From a virus (taxonomy: Duplodnaviria > Heunggongvirae > Uroviricota > Caudoviricetes), in IMG/VR virus record IMGVR_UViG_2531839473_000009: 10,411 nt of DNA; one strand, given 5' to 3'. A program made the position numbers and the translations under genes. The notes under the pieces are model-generated. The model had not been told where the DNA came from. It did no database searches and saw nothing but the letters and a program-made list of their open reading frames with translations. The stretch's first letter is position 1. Each line of letters opens with the position of its first letter. Below, one piece after another: positions 1-10,411 of this stretch.

Positions 1-1242
1 ATGGCGAGAAAAACACCCCCATTAACCACAGTGCAGATCAAAGCAGCCAGACCAGCGCAAAAGGAGTACACCCTACAGGACGGCGGTGGGCTTTTTCTCC
101 TGGTAAAACCGTCCGGATCAAAACTCTGGCGATTTTCCTACTACCGACCATCGGACAAAAAAAGAATATTGCTGAGTTTTGGATCGCTTGAAGATGTTTC
201 CCTGGCTGATGCCAGAAAACGCCGTAGCGAGTACAGGACGTTAATCAGTGCCGGAACTGACCCGCAGGACCATGAGAAGAAAAAACGAGAGGCAGAGGCC
301 CGAAGACAAGGGAACACGTTCGAAAATGTGGCGGCGGCATGGTACCAGGTGAAAATCAGCCAGAATCTGGCCCCCAACACGATTAAAGACATCTGGCGTT
401 CGCTGGATAAATATGTATTCCCGTTCATCGGCAACACGCCAATAGATACCCTCACTGCCCGAAGGTTCGTTGAGGTGCTTACACCCATCAAGGAGCGCGG
501 CAACCTGGAAACACTCAAGCGGGTTTTACAGCGCGTTAATGAGGTAATGGATTACGCCGCCAACAGTGGGCTGATTGATGCCAATCCGGCTATGAATGTG
601 CGTAAGGCGTTCCCCTCCCCTGTAAAAAAACATATGCCAACAATCCGCCCCGAACAGTTGCCGGAGCTTATGCAGGCTTTATCCGTATCAGCAACAGAAC
701 GGCAGACCAGATTACTGATTGAATGGCAGCTACTGACTGTAACCCGTCCGGTTGAAGCATCGTCAGCACGCTGGGAAGAAATCGACATGGACGCGCAACA
801 ATGGACGATCCCCGCCGGACGCATGAAGATGCGGCGTGATCACGTTATCCCGCTTTGTAGTCAGGCTATGGCGGTACTGGAGGCCATGAAGCCAATCAGC
901 CACCACCGCGAGCACGTTTTCCCTAGCCTGAAAGACCCACGGCAGCCTATGAACAGCCAGACCGCCAACGCAGCATTGCGGCGAATGGGATTCGCTGGCG
1001 TGCTGGTGTCTCATGGATTACGCGCCATATTCAGCACAGCAGCGAACGAGGAAGGATTCGAGCCGGACGTAATCGAGGCCGCACTCGCACACGTGGACAC
1101 GAACGAGGTAAGGCGAGCATATAACCGAAGTAACTACCTGGAAAAGCGCGTGGTGCTTATGCGCTGGTGGGGGGAATTTGTAGAGGCCGCAGCAACCGGA
1201 GTGACCATAGCCAGTGGTAAAAGGGGTATCCGTGCCGTGTAA
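1..1242 (+). CDS. int: Tyrosine-type site-specific integrase, P4/CP4-57 family (413 aa, apparently complete)
   Basis: N-terminus MARKTPPLTTVQIKAARP..YTLQDGGGLFLLVKPSGSKLWRFSY matches the arm-binding domain of P4-type integrases. C-terminus HGLRAIFSTAA...ALAHVDTNEVRRAYNRSNYLEKRVVLMRWW carries the H-x-x-R box and the conserved RAY..(catalytic Tyr)..LMxWW tail. ATG at window position 1, so the attachment site and any tRNA target lie upstream, outside the window. Confidence 0.92.
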   Translation: MARKTPPLTTVQIKAARPAQKEYTLQDGGGLFLLVKPSGSKLWRFSYYRPSDKKRILLSFGSLEDVSLADARKRRSEYRTLISAGTDPQDHEKKKREAEARRQGNTFENVAAAWYQVKISQNLAPNTIKDIWRSLDKYVFPFIGNTPIDTLTARRFVEVLTPIKERGNLETLKRVLQRVNEVMDYAANSGLIDANPAMNVRKAFPSPVKKHMPTIRPEQLPELMQALSVSATERQTRLLIEWQLLTVTRPVEASSARWEEIDMDAQQWTIPAGRMKMRRDHVIPLCSQAMAVLEAMKPISHHREHVFPSLKDPRQPMNSQTANAALRRMGFAGVLVSHGLRAIFSTAANEEGFEPDVIEAALAHVDTNEVRRAYNRSNYLEKRVVLMRWWGEFVEAAATGVTIASGKRGIRAV

Positions 1243-1756: not shown

Positions 1757-1963
1757 GTGGAAACAATCAGAAAAATTCTTACCCGTCAGGAAGTAAAAAA
1801 TATTCTGCGCATCAAGGCAGACAGTTCGCTACAGGACATGATCAACGCCGGAAAATTCCCGAAAGGCTTCAAAATCGGTCTGCGCCGTGTTGGCTGGTAT
1901 GAAGATGAAGTGCTGGCCTGGCTGAAAGAGCGCGAGGAAGAAGCGCGCGGAACGGCTGCGTAA
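1757..1963 (+). CDS. alpA: AlpA-family phage transcriptional regulator / excisionase-like DNA-binding protein (68 aa, GTG start)
   Basis: Sequence ..LTRQEVKNILRIKADSSLQDMINAGKFPKGFKIGLRRVGWYEDEVLAWLKER has the AlpA/Vis/TorI signature (G-FPK ... R-VGW-E-EV-AWL). SD GAGGT sits 7 nt upstream of GTG. Position right after int is typical. Confidence 0.85.
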   Translation: METIRKILTRQEVKNILRIKADSSLQDMINAGKFPKGFKIGLRRVGWYEDEVLAWLKEREEEARGTAA

Positions 1964-2111: not shown

Positions 2112-2142
2112 GGCAAAACAAAGGCCACCCGCTACGGTGGCC
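2112..2142 (-). terminator. Possible terminator for the leftward small regulator gene
   Basis: Hairpin GGCCACC-CGCTAC-GGTGGCC (2123-2142). On the - strand it is followed by the T-rich run TTTGTTTTG. Lies between the convergent alpA and minus-strand gene. Confidence 0.35.
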
Positions 2143-2245
2143 CCTCGACACAAGCTACACGTTATCCCCAACGCATGAGCATAGCCAACAATGCCACATT
2201 TGCGGCTGGTGGGCAAAGCGTAACCGGAAAAAAATTCCGGTGGAG

Positions 2246-2425
2246 CTACTCCTGCTCTTTGGCCTTGCGGCGCTGGCGGCGTTTGATCTCGCCGCGCATG
2301 GCTGCACTTATAAACTGCCCTGTACTTTCGCCTTCTTCTTTCACGTTTTCCATGCCTTCAATAATTTCATGGGCAATACGTGCAGTTACAGATTGTGATT
2401 TTGCATTCTTTGGACCTGTTGCCAT
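2246..2425 (-). CDS. Small DNA-binding protein (59 aa), candidate ribbon-helix-helix repressor
   Basis: Start chosen at the internal ATG (MATGPKNAKSQSVTARIAHEIIEGMENVKEEGESTGQFISAAMRGEIKRRQRRKAKEQE) because a consensus SD (AAGGAG) lies 6 nt upstream; the longer track ORF (to 2464) lacks one. Pattern of a short beta-strand (SQSVTARI), two helices and a basic tail resembles Arc/CopG/MetJ-type proteins. Transcribed divergently from an operator-rich promoter region. Confidence 0.6.
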   Translation of the reverse strand: MATGPKNAKSQSVTARIAHEIIEGMENVKEEGESTGQFISAAMRGEIKRRQRRKAKEQE

Positions 2426-2445
2426 GTCTAACTCCTTATGTTTTT

Positions 2446-2527
2446 GGTGTAAGACAATATACACGAAAAAAAATTATTTTGAAGGGTTGACGTGTAAGAC
2501 ACTATTATTTTATATTGTGTCTTACAC
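2446..2527. promoter_or_regulatory. Divergent promoter pair with three copies of a GTGTAAGACA(C) operator motif
   Basis: Rightward promoter: TTGACG (2487-2492), 18-bp spacer, TATATT (2511-2516). Leftward promoter on the - strand: TTCAAA, 16-bp spacer, TATATT (+ coordinates 2456-2483). Operator copies: GTGTAAGACA 2447-2456, GTGTAAGACAC 2492-2502 and its perfect inverse GTGTCTTACAC 2517-2527. The copies overlap the -35 and transcription-start regions of both promoters. Confidence 0.6.
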
Positions 2528-2624
2528 CTTGTTGATACAAGGTGCAGAAACGACGAAACCCGGCAGTGCGCTAACACTAACCGGGCTTCTAACCACCAAC
2601 GATAACGAGAGTATCGAGGTAGCT

Positions 2625-3239
2625 ATGTTAAATCATACCATACACCCGCAAGGGCGGGACTCGCACAACCTGAATAAATATATCTGGCGTTTTATCGCCC
2701 TGAGCACAGCACAACCGCGCGTGATTACCATTGAGGCCACCAGCGAACAGGAAGCACGCCAGAAAAACCAGTTGATCGCCATTGCCAGCCAGGGCTATGA
2801 TTTATCCGCACCAGCAAAATCTGGTGCCGGGATTGGCGTCCTGGTATTTAACGAAGCGCACAACACGCGCCCTGCGTGTTTTTTTGTGCCGGATAGTCAC
2901 ACCTTATCAATGGTGGGCTGTATGGGGGCGGAGCAATCCGCGCCGGGTTCTTCGTTAACCGGTTACGCCAACCCTGTACAGTCCACCGCCAGCGAAATTG
3001 GCGTTTCCTGCGGTGGGTTTATTAAACCTAACGAAGAGGCTGCCAACATGGCTACTATCCCTGCCCTCGTACATTCTCAAACTGCCTTTATCTGGCGCTT
3101 TATCATCTTTGGCGCGTCAGAATCCCAAATCATCCACGTAACCGCCTGGACGGAACGCGAAGCGCGTAGTCGTTGCCCGTCCGGTTGTGTTGCTGTATTC
3201 GCCGCCCGTATTCGTCAGGAGGTGCGCCATGTGCAATAA
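2625..3239 (+). CDS. Icd-like (host cell division inhibitor-like) protein, long form with two tandem Icd-like modules (205 aa)
   Basis: First ATG downstream of the rightward promoter, in the only long open frame. N-terminal module MLNHTIHPQGRDSHNLNKYIWRFIALSTAQPRVITIEATSEQEAR carries the HPQGR...IWRF...SE-EAR pattern I associate with Icd-like small proteins of P4-like islands. No stop codon separates it from the second module. The 1968..2624 part of the track ORF is rejected. Confidence 0.35.
   Translation: MLNHTIHPQGRDSHNLNKYIWRFIALSTAQPRVITIEATSEQEARQKNQLIAIASQGYDLSAPAKSGAGIGVLVFNEAHNTRPACFFVPDSHTLSMVGCMGAEQSAPGSSLTGYANPVQSTASEIGVSCGGFIKPNEEAANMATIPALVHSQTAFIWRFIIFGASESQIIHVTAWTEREARSRCPSGCVAVFAARIRQEVRHVQ
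3048..3239 (+). CDS. Icd-like small protein (63 aa), internal in-frame start of the same frame
   Basis: ATG at 3048 preceded by GAAGAGG 8 nt upstream. Product MATIPALVHSQTAFIWRFIIFGASESQIIHVTAWTEREARSRCPSGCVAVFAARIRQEVRHVQ is the more canonical Icd-like module (FIWRF ... EREAR ... FAxR) and has the size typical of that family. Its stop overlaps the next gene start. Confidence 0.45.
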   Translation: MATIPALVHSQTAFIWRFIIFGASESQIIHVTAWTEREARSRCPSGCVAVFAARIRQEVRHVQ

Positions 3240-3684: not shown

Positions 3685-3984
3685 ATGAAACAGAAAAATT
3701 CTGGCTTTACTGCCAGTGGCCTCGCTCGGCCTGAAATCCGCCCCGGCGATATTTTCCGGGATAACTACGGCGGCACGGTAACGATTAAAAGCGTGGCGGG
3801 ACGGTGCGTAACTTACCGCCGTGAAGGTTACGAATATGATTGCGTGATGCCTGTTTATCAGTTCCGGCGTGATTTTTCTCTGGTACAGACCGCGCCGCAT
3901 AACGTGCCCACCAGCAACGCCAGGGCACGGGCAAACATCCAGAAGCTGAAAACCATGATTAACGGATTCAGGGGTAAAAAATGA
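3685..3984 (+). CDS. Hypothetical protein (99 aa) immediately upstream of and coupled to the primase gene
   Basis: ATG at 3685 with GGAGA 9 nt upstream. Its stop overlaps the primase start (ATGA, 3981-3984). Occupies the position held by small helper-interaction genes (epsilon-like) in P4-type left operons, but no sequence similarity can be asserted. Confidence 0.6.
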   Translation: MKQKNSGFTASGLARPEIRPGDIFRDNYGGTVTIKSVAGRCVTYRREGYEYDCVMPVYQFRRDFSLVQTAPHNVPTSNARARANIQKLKTMINGFRGKK

Positions 3985-5735
3985 AACTGGCACCGAACGT
4001 AAAACAGCAGTCACGCGGCATAAAACACAAAGAAACAGAAGTCATTATTTTTGCGGGTAGTGATGCCTGGTCACACGCAAAACAATGGCAGGAACATGAC
4101 GCGCGTCTGGCCGGAGATAATGAGCCTCCTGTGTGGCTTGGGGAGCAGCAGTTATCAGAACTGGATAAGCTGCAAATTGTGCCGGAAGGCAGAAAATCCG
4201 TGCGCATATTCAGGGCCGGATATCTTGCGCCAGTAATGATAAAGGCGATTGGCCAGAAGCTGGCGGCGGCAGGCGTACAGGATGCAAATTTTTATCCTGA
4301 GGGTATGCACGGCCAAGAGGTGCAGAACTGGCGCGAATATCTGGCCCGTGAGCGACAGAATCTTTCTGATGGTCTGGTCATTGAGCTTCCGGTAAAGCAA
4401 AAGGCGCAACTTTCGCAGATGGCGGACAGTGAGCGCGCGCAGCTGCTTGCCGATCGCTTTGATGGCGTTTGCGTACATCCTGAAAGTGAAATCGTTTACG
4501 TATGGCGCGGCGGGGTATGGTGTCCGGTCAGCACAATGGAACTTAGCCGCGAAATGGTGGCGATCTATTCAGAGCACAGGGCCACTTTCAGCAAGCGCGT
4601 AATCAATAACGCCGTGGAAGCGTTAAAAGTTATTGCCGAACCAATGGGCGAGCCGTCCGGCGATTTGCTGCCGTTCGCCAATGGTGCGCTTGACCTGAAA
4701 ACGGGGGAATTTTCCCCGCACACGCCGGAGAACTGGATCACCACGCACAACGGTATTGAGTACACGCCACCAGCACCAGGGGAGAATATCCGCGACAACG
4801 CGCCAAACTTTCATAAATGGCTTGAGCACGTAGCCGGAAAAGACCCGCGCAAGATGATGCGTATATGTGCCGCGCTGTACATGATTATGGCGAACCGGTA
4901 CGACTGGCAGATGTTTATTGAGGCCACCGGAGACGGCGGGAGCGGTAAAAGTACATTCACGCACATAGCCAGCCTTCTGGCAGGGAAACAGAACACGGTG
5001 AGCGCGGAGATGACATCGCTTGATGATGCTGGTGGACGTGCGCAGGTTGTCGGGAGTCGTCTTATCGTCCTGGCTGACCAGCCGAAATATACAGGCGAAG
5101 GAACGGGCATCAAGAAAATCACGGGCGGCGACCCCGTGGAAATTAACCCGAAATATGAAAAGCGTTTTACGGCGGTAATCAGGGCGGTGGTGCTGGCTAC
5201 CAACAATAACCCGATGATATTCACCGAACGGGCCGGAGGTGTGTCACGTCGTCGCATAATTTTCCGTTTCGACAATATCGTCAGTGAGGCCGAAAAAGAC
5301 AGGGAGCTACCGGAAAAGATTGCGGCTGAAATCCCTGTCATTATCCGCCGATTGCTGGCGAACTTTACCGACCCTGAGAAGGCACGGGCTTTACTACTGG
5401 AACAGCGTGACGGTGATGAAGCACTGGCAATAAAGCAACAGACGGATCCGGTTATTGAGTTTTGCCAGTTCCTGAATTTTCTGGAGGAAGCGCGCGGCCT
5501 GATGATGGGTGGCGGTGGTGATTCAGTGAAGTACACGACCAGGAACAGCCTTTATCGCGTCTATCTGGCGTTTATGGCGTACGCAGGCAGGAGCAAACCG
5601 CTAAACGTAAATGACTTTGGCAAGGCTATGAAGCCAGCCGCGAAAGTTTACGGACATAAATATATTACGCGGAAAGTTAAGGGAGTAACGCAGACTAACG
5701 CAATAACAACAGACGAGTGCGACGCGTTTTTATAA
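3981..5735 (+). CDS. Replication initiator: primase / SF3-type helicase (P4 alpha-like / D5 family, 584 aa)
   Basis: Walker A motif ATGDGGSGKST (nt about 4922-4954) and a Walker B-like RLIVLAD a short distance downstream. Large size, position after alpA and directly upstream of an iteron cluster match the pri-rep genes of PICI/P4-like satellites. Confidence 0.88.
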   Translation: MKLAPNVKQQSRGIKHKETEVIIFAGSDAWSHAKQWQEHDARLAGDNEPPVWLGEQQLSELDKLQIVPEGRKSVRIFRAGYLAPVMIKAIGQKLAAAGVQDANFYPEGMHGQEVQNWREYLARERQNLSDGLVIELPVKQKAQLSQMADSERAQLLADRFDGVCVHPESEIVYVWRGGVWCPVSTMELSREMVAIYSEHRATFSKRVINNAVEALKVIAEPMGEPSGDLLPFANGALDLKTGEFSPHTPENWITTHNGIEYTPPAPGENIRDNAPNFHKWLEHVAGKDPRKMMRICAALYMIMANRYDWQMFIEATGDGGSGKSTFTHIASLLAGKQNTVSAEMTSLDDAGGRAQVVGSRLIVLADQPKYTGEGTGIKKITGGDPVEINPKYEKRFTAVIRAVVLATNNNPMIFTERAGGVSRRRIIFRFDNIVSEAEKDRELPEKIAAEIPVIIRRLLANFTDPEKARALLLEQRDGDEALAIKQQTDPVIEFCQFLNFLEEARGLMMGGGGDSVKYTTRNSLYRVYLAFMAYAGRSKPLNVNDFGKAMKPAAKVYGHKYITRKVKGVTQTNAITTDECDAFL

Positions 5736-5749
5736 TTTTTTGTAATTGC

Positions 5750-5975
5750 TGTCTACCCTGTCTACCTGAGTAAAGAAAAATACATTTAATTCAGTGCATT
5801 AAGTTATGTAGATAGCCTTTTTTTACTATCTACCCACTATCTACCCTCTCTACCTGATTTTACCTGAATCAGACAGGGAGGTAGACACGGGGTAGATAGT
5901 GGATAAAAGCACTCTACCCCGCTGAAAGCCGCGCCATTACTGGCATGAGGGCCACTAAGGTAGATAAGGTAGACA
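5750..5975. repeat. Iteron cluster, candidate origin of replication
   Basis: At least five direct copies of core TCTACC (5752, 5761, 5829, 5840, 5849, plus CTCTACCCC at about 5913) and four inverted copies GGTAGA (5880, 5891, 5959, 5969). Many are spaced 9-11 bp apart in a non-coding gap directly downstream of the primase/helicase gene. Confidence 0.6.
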
Positions 5976-6023
5976 AGGGGAGGCACAACTCAAAACTTTT
6001 TAAACGAGGGGGTAAAAATAAAT

Positions 6024-6302
6024 ATGCACACTTCAGGGAAATTTAATAAATCACTCAAAAAACGCAGAGACAGAACAGAACCGAAATATCGCGCGTTAGA
6101 CATGACAGAGCACGCTTTAAAGGTGGCAATCAGAACGATAGACCGCCACGCGGGGGAAGGATACGCGAAAGCACATCCCGACCTGATAAGCGCATTCATG
6201 ACCACGACGGCGGCAAATTTTGCCACGCTGACAGAGCGGGAGATTGCCGAAGCGGAACAGGTAACAACAATCAACGTTAAAACCGGAGAGGTGGAATCAT
6301 GA
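6024..6302 (+). CDS. Hypothetical protein (92 aa) upstream of and coupled to ssb
   Basis: ATG at 6024 with G-rich SD (GAGGGGG) 11 nt upstream. Stop overlaps the ssb start (ATGA). No family recognised. Confidence 0.5.
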   Translation: MHTSGKFNKSLKKRRDRTEPKYRALDMTEHALKVAIRTIDRHAGEGYAKAHPDLISAFMTTTAANFATLTEREIAEAEQVTTINVKTGEVES

Positions 6303-9333: not shown

Positions 9334-9768
9334 ATGATTGATAAAGCTTGTTTTGTAAGCCAGCAGGAAATAGCTGAACATTTCCAGGTAAACAGAACCA
9401 CTATTCGCGCATGGACCAAACAGGGGATGCCCTATCTTAATGCGGATCGCGGAAAGTCTGGCGGTTATCACATCGGGCATACATTGCTTTGGTCTTCAGG
9501 TAAAAGCCATTTTGAGACCATCGGATATCACGTAGAAACCAGTGCGCTGGAAAAAATTATGGTTGCCAGGCTGCTTTCATCTGAGCGTGACGAGTACTCC
9601 AGTGAAGAAACAGAACATCGATTTGATGAAGGTTTGCAGATTTACGGCTATGCACCGGAAGATGTGAGCAAGGCACGAAATAAAATGGCTGGCTTTCTGG
9701 CTGGGTGGCGTCATGCAGTAAGCGTTCGCCGTGCCAGCATGGAGCAATCAGCCGATACAGAACAGTAA
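9334..9768 (+). CDS. Nu1-like small terminase subunit / winged-HTH DNA-binding protein (144 aa)
   Basis: N-terminus VSQQEIAEHFQVNRTTIRAWTKQGMPYLNADRGKSGG resembles lambda Nu1 KKQLADIFGASIRTIQNWQEQGMPVLRGGGKGNE (the TI..W...GMP.L....GK motif of its winged helix). About 35 aa shorter than Nu1 with an unrelated C-terminal half. SD GAGGT 5 nt upstream. A MerR-like regulator cannot be excluded. Confidence 0.55.
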   Translation: MIDKACFVSQQEIAEHFQVNRTTIRAWTKQGMPYLNADRGKSGGYHIGHTLLWSSGKSHFETIGYHVETSALEKIMVARLLSSERDEYSSEETEHRFDEGLQIYGYAPEDVSKARNKMAGFLAGWRHAVSVRRASMEQSADTEQ

Positions 9769-9926: not shown

Positions 9927-10411
9927 TGGATTTGCCCCTATATTTCCAGACATCTGTTATCACTTAACCCATTACAAGCCCGCTGCCGCAGATATTCCCG
10001 TGGCGAGCGATAACCCAGCGCACTATGCGGATGCCATTCGTTATAATGCTCGAACGCCTCTGCAAGGTTCTTTGCTGCCGTTAACCCGTCTGGTTTGGGC
10101 ATGATACTGATGTAGTCACGCTTTATCGTTTTCACGAAGCTCTCTGCTATTCCGTTACTCTCCGGACTCCGCACCGCCGTGTTCTTCGGTTCAAGTCCCA
10201 ACATCCGGGCGAACTGGCGTGTTTCATTAGCCCGGTAGCATGAACCATTATCCGTCAGCCACTCCACTGGAGACGACGGAAGATCGTTGCCGAAGCGGCG
10301 TTCCACCGCTCCCAGCATGACGTCCTGTACTGTTTCACTGTTGAAGCCGCCAGTAGTCACCGCCCAGTGCAGTGCCTCACGATCACAGCAGTCCAGCGCG
10401 AACGTGACACG
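9927..10411 (-). mobile_element. IS2 (IS3 family), right end and 3' part, truncated by the window edge
   Basis: Terminal sequence TGGATTTGCCCCTATATTTCCAGACATCTGTTATCACTTAACC matches the remembered IS2 end adjacent to the orfB stop, including the conserved TTTCCAGACA...TATCACTTAA inverted-repeat core. Element boundary placed at about 9927. Target-site duplication cannot be checked because the other end is outside the window. Confidence 0.8.
9938..10411 (-). CDS. insD: IS2 transposase OrfB (InsD), C-terminal part; 5' end outside the window
   Basis: The reverse frame is open to the window edge (..[40 protein letters not shown]...[19 protein letters not shown]...[24 protein letters not shown]). 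It matches the IS2 InsD C-terminus from memory and has the DDE-domain tail typical of IS3-family OrfB. Confidence 0.9.

Follow-up and report, generated by a model that had tools for sequence, protein, structure and literature searches.

Whether the phage-inducible chromosomal islands (PICIs) of Gram-negative bacteria possess a global repressor has been called 'unclear' (PMC6092414). A viral DNA of 10,411 nucleotides (IMG/VR record IMGVR_UViG_2531839473_000009; hereafter the window, meaning this whole stretch) can be assigned, as a phage satellite, to the Gram-negative PICIs. Between alpA and a rightward operon that runs from an Icd-like gene to a primase-helicase gene, the window carries a small leftward gene for a 59-residue protein of the YlcI/YnfO family with a predicted ribbon-helix-helix (RHH) fold, and a pair of divergent promoter-like sites in which one short sequence is repeated three times. 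It is proposed here, with a probability of roughly three in four, that the small gene encodes an autoregulated RHH repressor of the rightward replication operon which acts through three operators and is also the immunity determinant of the island. Binding, repression, autoregulation and the role in immunity are all put forward on the basis of sequence comparison.

Three repeated sites on two predicted divergent promoters

The sequence GTGTAAGACA is found exactly three times in the window, at 2447-2456 and 2492-2501 on the plus strand and at 2518-2527 on the minus strand, where 0.35 copies are expected by chance and three copies are reached in one of 200 shuffles. No further copy with up to two mismatches is present in the window, and matches with three mismatches occur at chance level (24 against 19.6). 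Taken as 11-mers, sites 2 and 3 (GTGTAAGACAC and GTGTCTTACAC) make up a perfect inverted pair with a distance of 25 bp from centre to centre, and site 1 is an imperfect copy (Table 1). Each 11-mer is itself nearly palindromic (GTGT-nnn-ACAC), so that the inverted pair amounts to one pseudo-symmetric site present twice.

A consensus scan of the 1-kb region returns five promoter-like matches against 1.0 expected, and all three sites are located on the elements of a leftward and a rightward promoter-like site. The initial annotation of this locus had described a 59-residue leftward gene and a candidate three-site operator over divergent promoters, both of which are recovered from the sequence, the promoter scan and the repeat search, as is the site placed at the leftward -10 element, with which site 1 shares one or two bases. 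Sites 2 and 3 had been described as covering the -35 element and the start region of the rightward promoter. The perfect pair, its spacing and the coverage of the start all hold, with site 3 beginning one base 3' of the -10 element, whereas site 2 begins at the final base of the -35 element and occupies the spacer, and thus abuts the -35 element rather than covering it. The location of these two sites within the spacer and over the start argues for repression by promoter occlusion.

The window was compared with 56 loci from one-genome-per-species collections, three Escherichia coli loci and EcCICFT073, the prototype E. coli PICI, which together include members of the genera Escherichia, Citrobacter, Kluyvera, Raoultella, Serratia, Yersinia, Pectobacterium, Dickeya, Hafnia, Xenorhabdus, Proteus and Morganella. 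Approximately 55 related loci have sites, and the site geometry was counted on 31 distinct site triplets. The three-site layout recurs in essentially all loci compared. Site 1 is located 22 nucleotides upstream of the ATG in 29 of the triplets, beside a conserved AGTATAC that corresponds to the leftward -10 element, and site 2 follows at 45 bp (44-46) in every triplet, directly after a conserved TTGA(C/A). The distance from site 2 to site 3 is 22-26 or 35-36 bp, and the third site is a direct copy in 18 triplets and an inverted one in 13, which means that the inverted arrangement which the initial annotation had singled out is not conserved. Site 1 differs from site 2 in 30 of the 31 triplets and has C as its last base in two, as compared to 28 for sites 2 and 3, and is a systematically degraded and presumably weaker copy. 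A degraded site on the -10 element and start of the repressor's own gene is a classic design for negative autoregulation, which would set in at higher occupancy.

The repeats could in principle be a product of chance or a structural feature in which the inverted pair forms a DNA or RNA hairpin, and sites 2 and 3 of the window are indeed a perfect inverted repeat that gave a meaningless, sub-threshold match to a microRNA precursor. This explanation is hardly credible in the face of three copies where 0.35 are expected and of a site 2 that is located upstream of the expected transcription start, and the hairpin or cruciform reading was rejected since no hairpin can form in the 18 triplets with a direct third site.

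A predicted RHH protein that varies in step with the three sites

The small gene starts with ATG, and a 72-residue open reading frame (ORF) with a GTG start is a mechanical extension of it, as the homologues all begin with MATG. The protein has no match in Pfam and is recognised by the NCBIfam model NF041551 (YlcI/YnfO) with 66.8 bits against a cutoff of 30 (E 1.2e-18, residues 9-50), in line with RefSeq, which gives its homologues the same annotation, while PHROGs places it in two families of unassigned function. Homologues make up 113 clusters among 5.8 billion proteins, all from Enterobacterales and all of about 60 residues, and an exhaustive profile search of 1.84 billion representatives finds only 92 at E <=0.001, which identifies the subfamily as a narrow one. 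Of 5426 complete E. coli genomes, 814 have a detectable homologue of the small gene.

The AlphaFold (AF2) model of the monomer, calculated from an alignment of 46 sequences, has a mean pLDDT (predicted local distance difference test score) of 88.6 and consists of an N-terminal arm (residues 1-9), an extended segment (10-17), a first helix (19-28), a tight turn and a long second helix (35-58), which is the beta-alpha-alpha order of the RHH fold with its approximately 45 residues. RHH proteins are characterised by a G-x-S/T/N turn that joins the two helices. In the present family this turn is represented by G-E-S-T at residues 32-35, of which E33 and S34 are invariant and G32 and T35 nearly so. 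The extended segment alternates in the alignment between hydrophobic (V13, A15, I17) and polar residues (S12, T14, R16), as in the strand of an RHH protein, and K9, S10, R16 and the basic C-terminal segment GEIKRRQR are invariant. The structure prediction proposed in the initial annotation thus results in a confident extended segment and two helices of RHH type, and the RHH-like protein described there stands at the level of the predicted fold and its turn and not at that of any RHH sequence family. RHH membership is in this way supported by the modelled fold, without the backing of a sequence family.

Further evidence comes from the comparison of protein and sites. In a stack of 53 distinct sequences, the flanks GTG, CA(C), TATAC, an A-tract and TTGA are kept in at least 80%, as is the AGTATAC of the leftward -10 element, and the variation is found in the cores of 5-7 bp. 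At least 14 protein classes can be recognised, each of which has its own core repeated at all three sites, and the cores shift jointly at the three positions in step with protein residues 11-15. The class of the window, SQSVTAR, goes with GTGTAAGACAC, and other classes pair SKKLEAR with GTGGCTGACAC, SQMTTVR with GTGTATTTCAC, SQQLNAR with GTGCGATTCAC, SKRFDVR with GTGTCCGACAC, SLQVSVR with GTGGTGTTCAC and SQKMSAR with (G/C)TGGGTGCCAG, while SQSLKSR and SQALKAR, the latter from EcCICFT073, both go with GTGGGCCACAC. The protein columns most informative on the site sequence, as judged by mutual information without phylogenetic correction, are 14 and 12, the positions whose side chains would point towards the DNA in the ribbon of an RHH protein. 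Where the same pair of residues at 12/14 is found in unrelated backgrounds the cores are similar, as with Q/N (GTGC[GT]AT[TG]CAC) and with M or L together with T (GTGT[AG]TTTCAC), and in three of four cases of K/Q the cores have GGA(A/G) in common. The covariation of residues 12 and 14 with the site cores is indirect support for DNA binding by a putative obligate dimer through its paired strands.

The covariation is independent of the neighbouring genes. An alternative explanation is that the three sites are bound by AlpA and that the small protein has nothing to do with them, which would be attractive as AlpA is a DNA-binding regulator that is encoded next door in almost all loci (at the same relative position in 46) and is needed for the expression of island genes in EcCICFT073 (PMC6092414). 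AlpA is, however, 100% identical in loci L014, L042 and L043, which have three different operator classes, and in 39 locus pairs both members are of one operator class while their AlpA proteins are only 25-50% identical. The sites are also placed within the spacer and over the start, which are positions for repression and not for activation, and the motif is missing upstream of alpA, where AlpA activates its own expression. AlpA is therefore very improbable as the binding protein and was rejected as such because the site classes are uncoupled from it. The Icd-like product was rejected on similar grounds, since class and first rightward ORF vary separately: L003 and L024 share the class and not the ORF, and L003 shares the N-terminus of the ORF with the window and not the operator class.

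The independence of the Icd-like gene also bears on another possibility, in which the small protein would be an RHH protein of the ParG/omega type with an antitoxin-like or centromere-binding role, with the repeats as a partition or copy-control site, or with the protein neutralising the Icd-like division inhibitor by contact. The small gene and the Icd-like gene are transcribed divergently rather than together, and the latter changes without regard to protein class. The annotated islands show no ParA-type partner, and there are only three sites, all of them on promoter elements. Taken together, this makes the reading a very improbable one as well.

The three islands with identical AlpA, which come from Pectobacterium and Samsonia, are 90-100% identical in DNA sequence on both flanks, one of which extends over alpA and the other over the leader and operon. 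Identity drops to 22-60% only over the operators and the first approximately 37 codons of the small gene (positions ~2870-3110 of L014, L042 and L043). This is the pattern of an immunity cassette and is evidence of either cassette exchange or diversifying selection on a putative specificity module.

A proposed repressor switch and its relation to known systems

The initial annotation had proposed an autoregulated repressor of the replication operon, and with the sites on both promoters and the covariation with the predicted strand across about 55 loci this is the reading that fits best, with good support from the predicted structure and from a covariation of protein and putative operators that is unusually clear. 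It is proposed that a dimer inserts a two-stranded beta-ribbon (approximately residues 10-17) into the major groove of the 11-bp pseudo-palindrome GTG-N5-CAC, where the invariant R16, together with K9/S10, would read the GTG/CAC flanks and the variable residues 12 and 14 the class-specific core. K9, S10, R16 and the GEIKRRQR segment may, as a matter of speculation, serve in flank reading, in backbone contact or in contact with a class-independent partner. Occupation of the two full-strength sites 2 and 3 would exclude RNA polymerase from the rightward promoter and keep the Icd-like gene, the small ORFs, the DUF4222 gene and the primase-helicase gene silent while the island is chromosomal, and the weaker site 1 over the -10 element and start of the small gene would result in self shut-off only at higher protein concentration. 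Islands of different classes would be regulated independently within one cell, and repression would extend to any newly arriving island whose class is the same. A related reading is that of a dual regulator similar to P22 Mnt or AmrZ, which would shut down the rightward promoter while stimulating its own weak promoter through binding at site 2, some 48 bp ahead of the leftward start, with site 1 limiting its level. The fixed distance between the sites that would speak for such an arrangement can be explained by shared promoter geometry alone, and activation in addition to repression is considered unlikely.

A number of observations weigh against a simple repressor with a readable code. The gene and its sites are adjacent, so that some covariation is expected from linkage alone, the mutual information analysis ignores phylogeny, and K12/S14 is found with either of two cores, GTGTCCACCAC and GTGGGTGCCAG, which indicates that the code involves more than residues 12 and 14. 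As the spacing between sites 2 and 3 ranges from 22 to 36 bp with no constant helical phase, cooperative binding cannot be assumed. Among the 46 family members RHH_1 and RHH_5 are each hit by one member, below threshold, CB_ParB_C and DUF7557 likewise give only sub-threshold matches, a Foldseek search of the PDB with the model of the 59-residue protein gives no significant match, a hidden Markov model search of PDB sequences gives only a chance TPR match, and the monomer model has no strand assigned by DSSP, as is expected for an RHH protein. RNA control of the isrK/C4 type is located downstream in the window, which implies that the protein may not be the sole or 'master' control. Finally, none of 16 pairs of co-resident islands share a class where 2.4 would be expected (P = 0.067), a test of heteroimmunity that points in the right direction, is not significant and is only suggestive.

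The initial annotation had expected the repressor to be the target of helper-encoded derepression, a suggestion that none of the present results supports, and the published route of induction in these islands is instead helper-dependent transcription of alpA (PMC6092414). In EcCICFT073, helper phages induce the transcription of alpA (PMC6092414), AlpA activates the island genes and its own promoter (Fillol-Salom et al., PMC6092414), the expression of island genes in reporter assays requires alpA, and overexpression of AlpA alone leads to excision and uncontrolled replication (PMC6092414). The most economical route to derepression would be that helper-induced and AlpA-autoactivated transcription of alpA runs through the convergent small gene into the rightward operon, which would both hinder the synthesis of the repressor and bypass the repressed promoter, in a manner like the late promoter PLL of P4. 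The late promoter of P4 reads through vis into the immunity region (PMC10111431), which resembles the proposed read-through. Between alpA and the rightward promoter of the window there are no terminator-like sites on the plus strand, only on the minus strand, so that read-through driven by AlpA is possible. Alternatively, AlpA or a helper protein might act as an antirepressor.

EcCICFT073 itself (locus L062, NC_004431.1, 10473-10852) has both the small gene and three sites, GTGGGGGACAG, GTGGGCCACAC and GTGGGCCACAC. A search for the small gene in PICIs found no description of it in the literature covered, and matches to C4 and isrK RNAs in Gram-negative PICIs have been noted whereas the small protein has not (Tommasini et al., PMC10111431). 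The small gene of CFT073 is numbered C_RS30120, far outside the C_RS069xx numbering of its neighbours, which suggests later re-annotation and would explain the oversight. The gene downstream of alpA is hypervariable between islands, which fits with a diversifying specificity determinant. A wider claim has about an even chance of being correct. In it, the repressor and immunity determinant long sought in Gram-negative PICIs, EcCICFT073 and the capsid-forming PICIs among them, would be the RHH protein of the YlcI/YnfO type. This protein would have diversified jointly with its three operators into at least 14 heteroimmune classes by way of a simple code at residues 12 and 14, and helper induction through AlpA would override it by convergent read-through or antirepression.

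A close parallel in design is found in RHH repressors of the Arc/Mnt type, where, as proposed here, a small gene is divergent from the promoter that it silences, the operator overlaps that promoter, the repressor's own promoter is also controlled, and expression of the target operon during quiescence would do harm. There is, however, no detectable sequence relationship and no match to the Pfam Arc/Mnt family, and in place of one operator bound by a tetramer the window has three separate 11-bp sites, which would control the replication operon (Icd-like gene to primase) of a phage satellite rather than an antirepressor, and the specificity classes are numerous. The omega (inc18) and CopG-family RHH repressors (PDB 1irq, 2bnw, 6iya) have the fold predicted here, are autoregulated, and accept short repeats over promoter elements in direct or inverted orientation, but omega recognises long arrays of 7-bp heptads and has genes for copy number and partition as its targets, in contrast to three 11-bp pseudo-palindromes at fixed promoter positions. 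In lambdoid phages the repressors CI/Cro and their operators co-diversify into heteroimmune types and are swapped as a cassette, as appears to be the case here; unlike the present protein they are of the helix-turn-helix type, and there is no sign of the SOS-dependent cleavage that is part of that system.

A functional analogue of the Stl repressor of Staphylococcus aureus pathogenicity islands and of P4 immunity had been suspected in the initial annotation. Stl is a larger helix-turn-helix repressor and not an RHH protein. In the Stl/Rpr systems of Gram-positive PICIs (PMC6092414) the repressor gene is divergent from the excision and replication operon and is located beside the integration module, as in the window, and the repressor is expected to silence the island until a helper phage grows, which is the same logical position as that proposed for the small protein. 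The small gene is likewise found where the master repressor of a PICI would be looked for, divergent from the operon that leads from the Icd-like gene to primase; it differs in that it points away from int, in the opposite direction, rather than with it, and in its gene order and predicted RHH fold. Stl is also lifted by direct binding of a helper protein, whereas for the Gram-negative islands only helper-dependent transcription of alpA is documented. The analogy to Stl therefore holds for the function proposed and not for the fold or gene order.

As regards P4 immunity, a control layer of C4-type RNA is actually also present in the window. P4 itself is not known to have a divergent repressor gene. 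The P4 CI and P1 c4 RNAs (PMC10111431) control an operon of the same kind (Icd-like gene to primase), in P4 in a related satellite lineage, by RNA-RNA interaction after initiation, in contrast to the protein proposed here, which would act at initiation.

Within the family, YlcI (DLP12) and YnfO (Qin) of E. coli K-12 belong to the same NCBIfam family and are small, uncharacterised, predicted RHH proteins. Like the small gene, ylcI is divergent from its neighbour, but in DLP12 it is located near cos, opposite the Nu1-like nohD and not in a replication-control region, and its product has low similarity to the protein of the window. In MG1655 (locus L060, 6252-6834) the cos region falls within the 388-bp gap between ylcI and nohD, and the product looks RHH-like (…RNIRFPNQMIEQINIALEQKGSGNFSAWVIEACRRRL…).

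The device itself is of a familiar kind (P22 Mnt, CopG, omega), and in this case it is apparently the missing repressor of Gram-negative PICIs and a first functional lead for YlcI/YnfO. Gram-negative and capsid-forming PICIs are common and move virulence and defence genes, and a conserved RHH repressor with co-varying operators, if confirmed, would supply the missing half of their switch, provide the first function for the YlcI/YnfO family and explain the hypervariable gene downstream of alpA among otherwise identical islands. It would also predict classes of immunity between satellites and offer compact, orthogonal repressor-operator pairs (59 residues, 11 bp) with a readable specificity code. 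The induction mechanism can be tested directly in EcCICFT073, which carries the module.

The rightward transcript and the island context

The features of the window are collected in Table 1. Approximately 100 nucleotides separate site 3 from the ATG of the first rightward ORF, and an inverted repeat near the left end of this interval could represent a 5' stem-loop of the mRNA or an additional protein site. Repeats like it (CACCTTGA...TCAAGG) are present in many, not all, related loci. The structure of the leader that follows, directly ahead of the ATG, was named by hand and then tested, as the default RNAalifold consensus was weak. In an alignment of 31 loci its 18 base pairs are 87.6% paired and 14 of them have changes on both sides, a level reached in none of 500 shuffles, and slid controls were 30-43% paired. 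No Rfam family reached its gathering score on the leader, which may represent a cis-regulatory RNA that has yet to be described. The loop of hairpin B contains the Shine-Dalgarno sequence (SD) in many loci. A SymR-like match on the minus strand (2552-2624) has 33 bits against a gathering score of 61 (E 3e-4); a SymR homologue antisense to the leader was rejected, as the match is sub-threshold and probably reflects the leader hairpins, and a less probable alternative is an antisense RNA that spans the ribosome-binding site of the Icd-like gene.

Table 1. Positions of genes, promoter elements, repeats and RNA features in the window
Feature	Position	Strand	Details
P4-type integrase	1-1242		opens the window
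alpA	1757-1963	+	Pfam Phage_AlpA, E 4.5e-8; convergent with small gene
Terminator-like hairpin and T-run	2120-2145	-	3' of small gene on its own strand; a second at 1995-2022
Small gene, YlcI/YnfO family, predicted RHH	2425->2246	-	ATG start, 59 residues
Shine-Dalgarno sequence of small gene	2432-2437 (plus-strand positions)	-	AAGGAG, 6 nucleotides 5' of ATG
Operator site 1 (putative)	2447-2457	+	imperfect copy GTGTAAGACAA; overlaps leftward -10 and start region; proposed autoregulation site
Leftward promoter-like site	2456-2483	-	-35 TTCAAA 2483-2478, 16-bp spacer, -10 TATATT 2461-2456; 9/12 matches
Rightward promoter-like site	2487-2516	+	-35 TTGACG 2487-2492, 18-bp spacer, -10 TATATT 2511-2516; 10/12 matches
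Operator site 2 (putative)	2492-2502	+	GTGTAAGACAC; in rightward spacer, abuts -35
Operator site 3 (putative)	2517-2527	-	GTGTCTTACAC on plus strand, GTGTAAGACAC on minus strand; directly 3' of -10, over expected transcription start
Inverted repeat	2525-2544	+	CACCTTG-N6-CAAGGTG; expected 5' end of rightward transcript; overlaps right edge of site 3
Structured leader	2555-2619	+	hairpin A 2555-2589, single-stranded TCTAACCAC, hairpin B 2600-2616, SD GAGG 2616-2619
First rightward ORF	2625-3239	+	204 residues; NCBIfam phage_ICD_like, E 3e-10
c4-a1b1-like target	2795-2847	+	42.9 bits, just under gathering score 46.7; overlaps isrK-like element
isrK-like element	2808-2884	+	80 bits; ends in terminator-like hairpin and T-run 2862-2880
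C4 antisense RNA homologue	2906-2993	+	75.3 bits, gathering score 45; relative of P1 c4 and P4 CI immunity RNAs
DUF4222	3685-3984		rightward side
P4-family primase-helicase	3981-5735		rightward side
IS3-family (IS2-like) transposase fragment	9938-10360	-	rve-type C-terminus; right end of window

The first rightward ORF is composed of an Icd-like N-terminus and a second complete Icd-like unit (~3050-3239), in frame around an inserted RNA module. Related records (L001) label this stretch as an 'ash family protein' pseudogene, and in an island whose repressor gene is 100% identical the annotation at this place shows no more than a short Icd-like gene of 207 bp. The RNA module consists of the elements that define RNA immunity of the P4/P1 type, a C4/CI-type antisense RNA together with its upstream and downstream targets in the same transcript, and is located outside the protein-operator module. 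The initial annotation had the rightward promoter drive the operon from the Icd-like gene to primase, but the isrK-like element with its terminator, the c4-a1b1-like target and the C4 RNA lie between this promoter and the primase gene in the window. The isrK/C4 module is absent from 20 other loci that have the repressor module, which suggests that the protein-operator module is the more general control and the RNA module an add-on in the island of the window.

In its int, alpA, primase and capsid genes the island is of the EcCICFT073 type. Farther to the right are an ORF resembling a single-stranded DNA-binding protein, a major capsid gene of 351 codons and a decoration gene of 111 codons, and the late genes match those of EcCICFT073 in size, order and annotation. 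The IS3-family transposase fragment at the right end implies that the late region of the island is probably interrupted. Searches of the deposited phage genomes by blastn and tblastn gave no match, which indicates that close relatives are absent from sequenced phages, and the closest complete relatives are inserted at a tRNA-Pro gene beside yejM. The Rfam int-alpA RNA (RF02996) has no match at the gathering score in the window. A 144-residue ORF at 9334-9768 is without an assigned function. The RF02996 RNA is found between int and alpA in loci L006, L008, L038, L048, L051 and L055, at approximately 5450-6125 on the minus strand in locus orientation.

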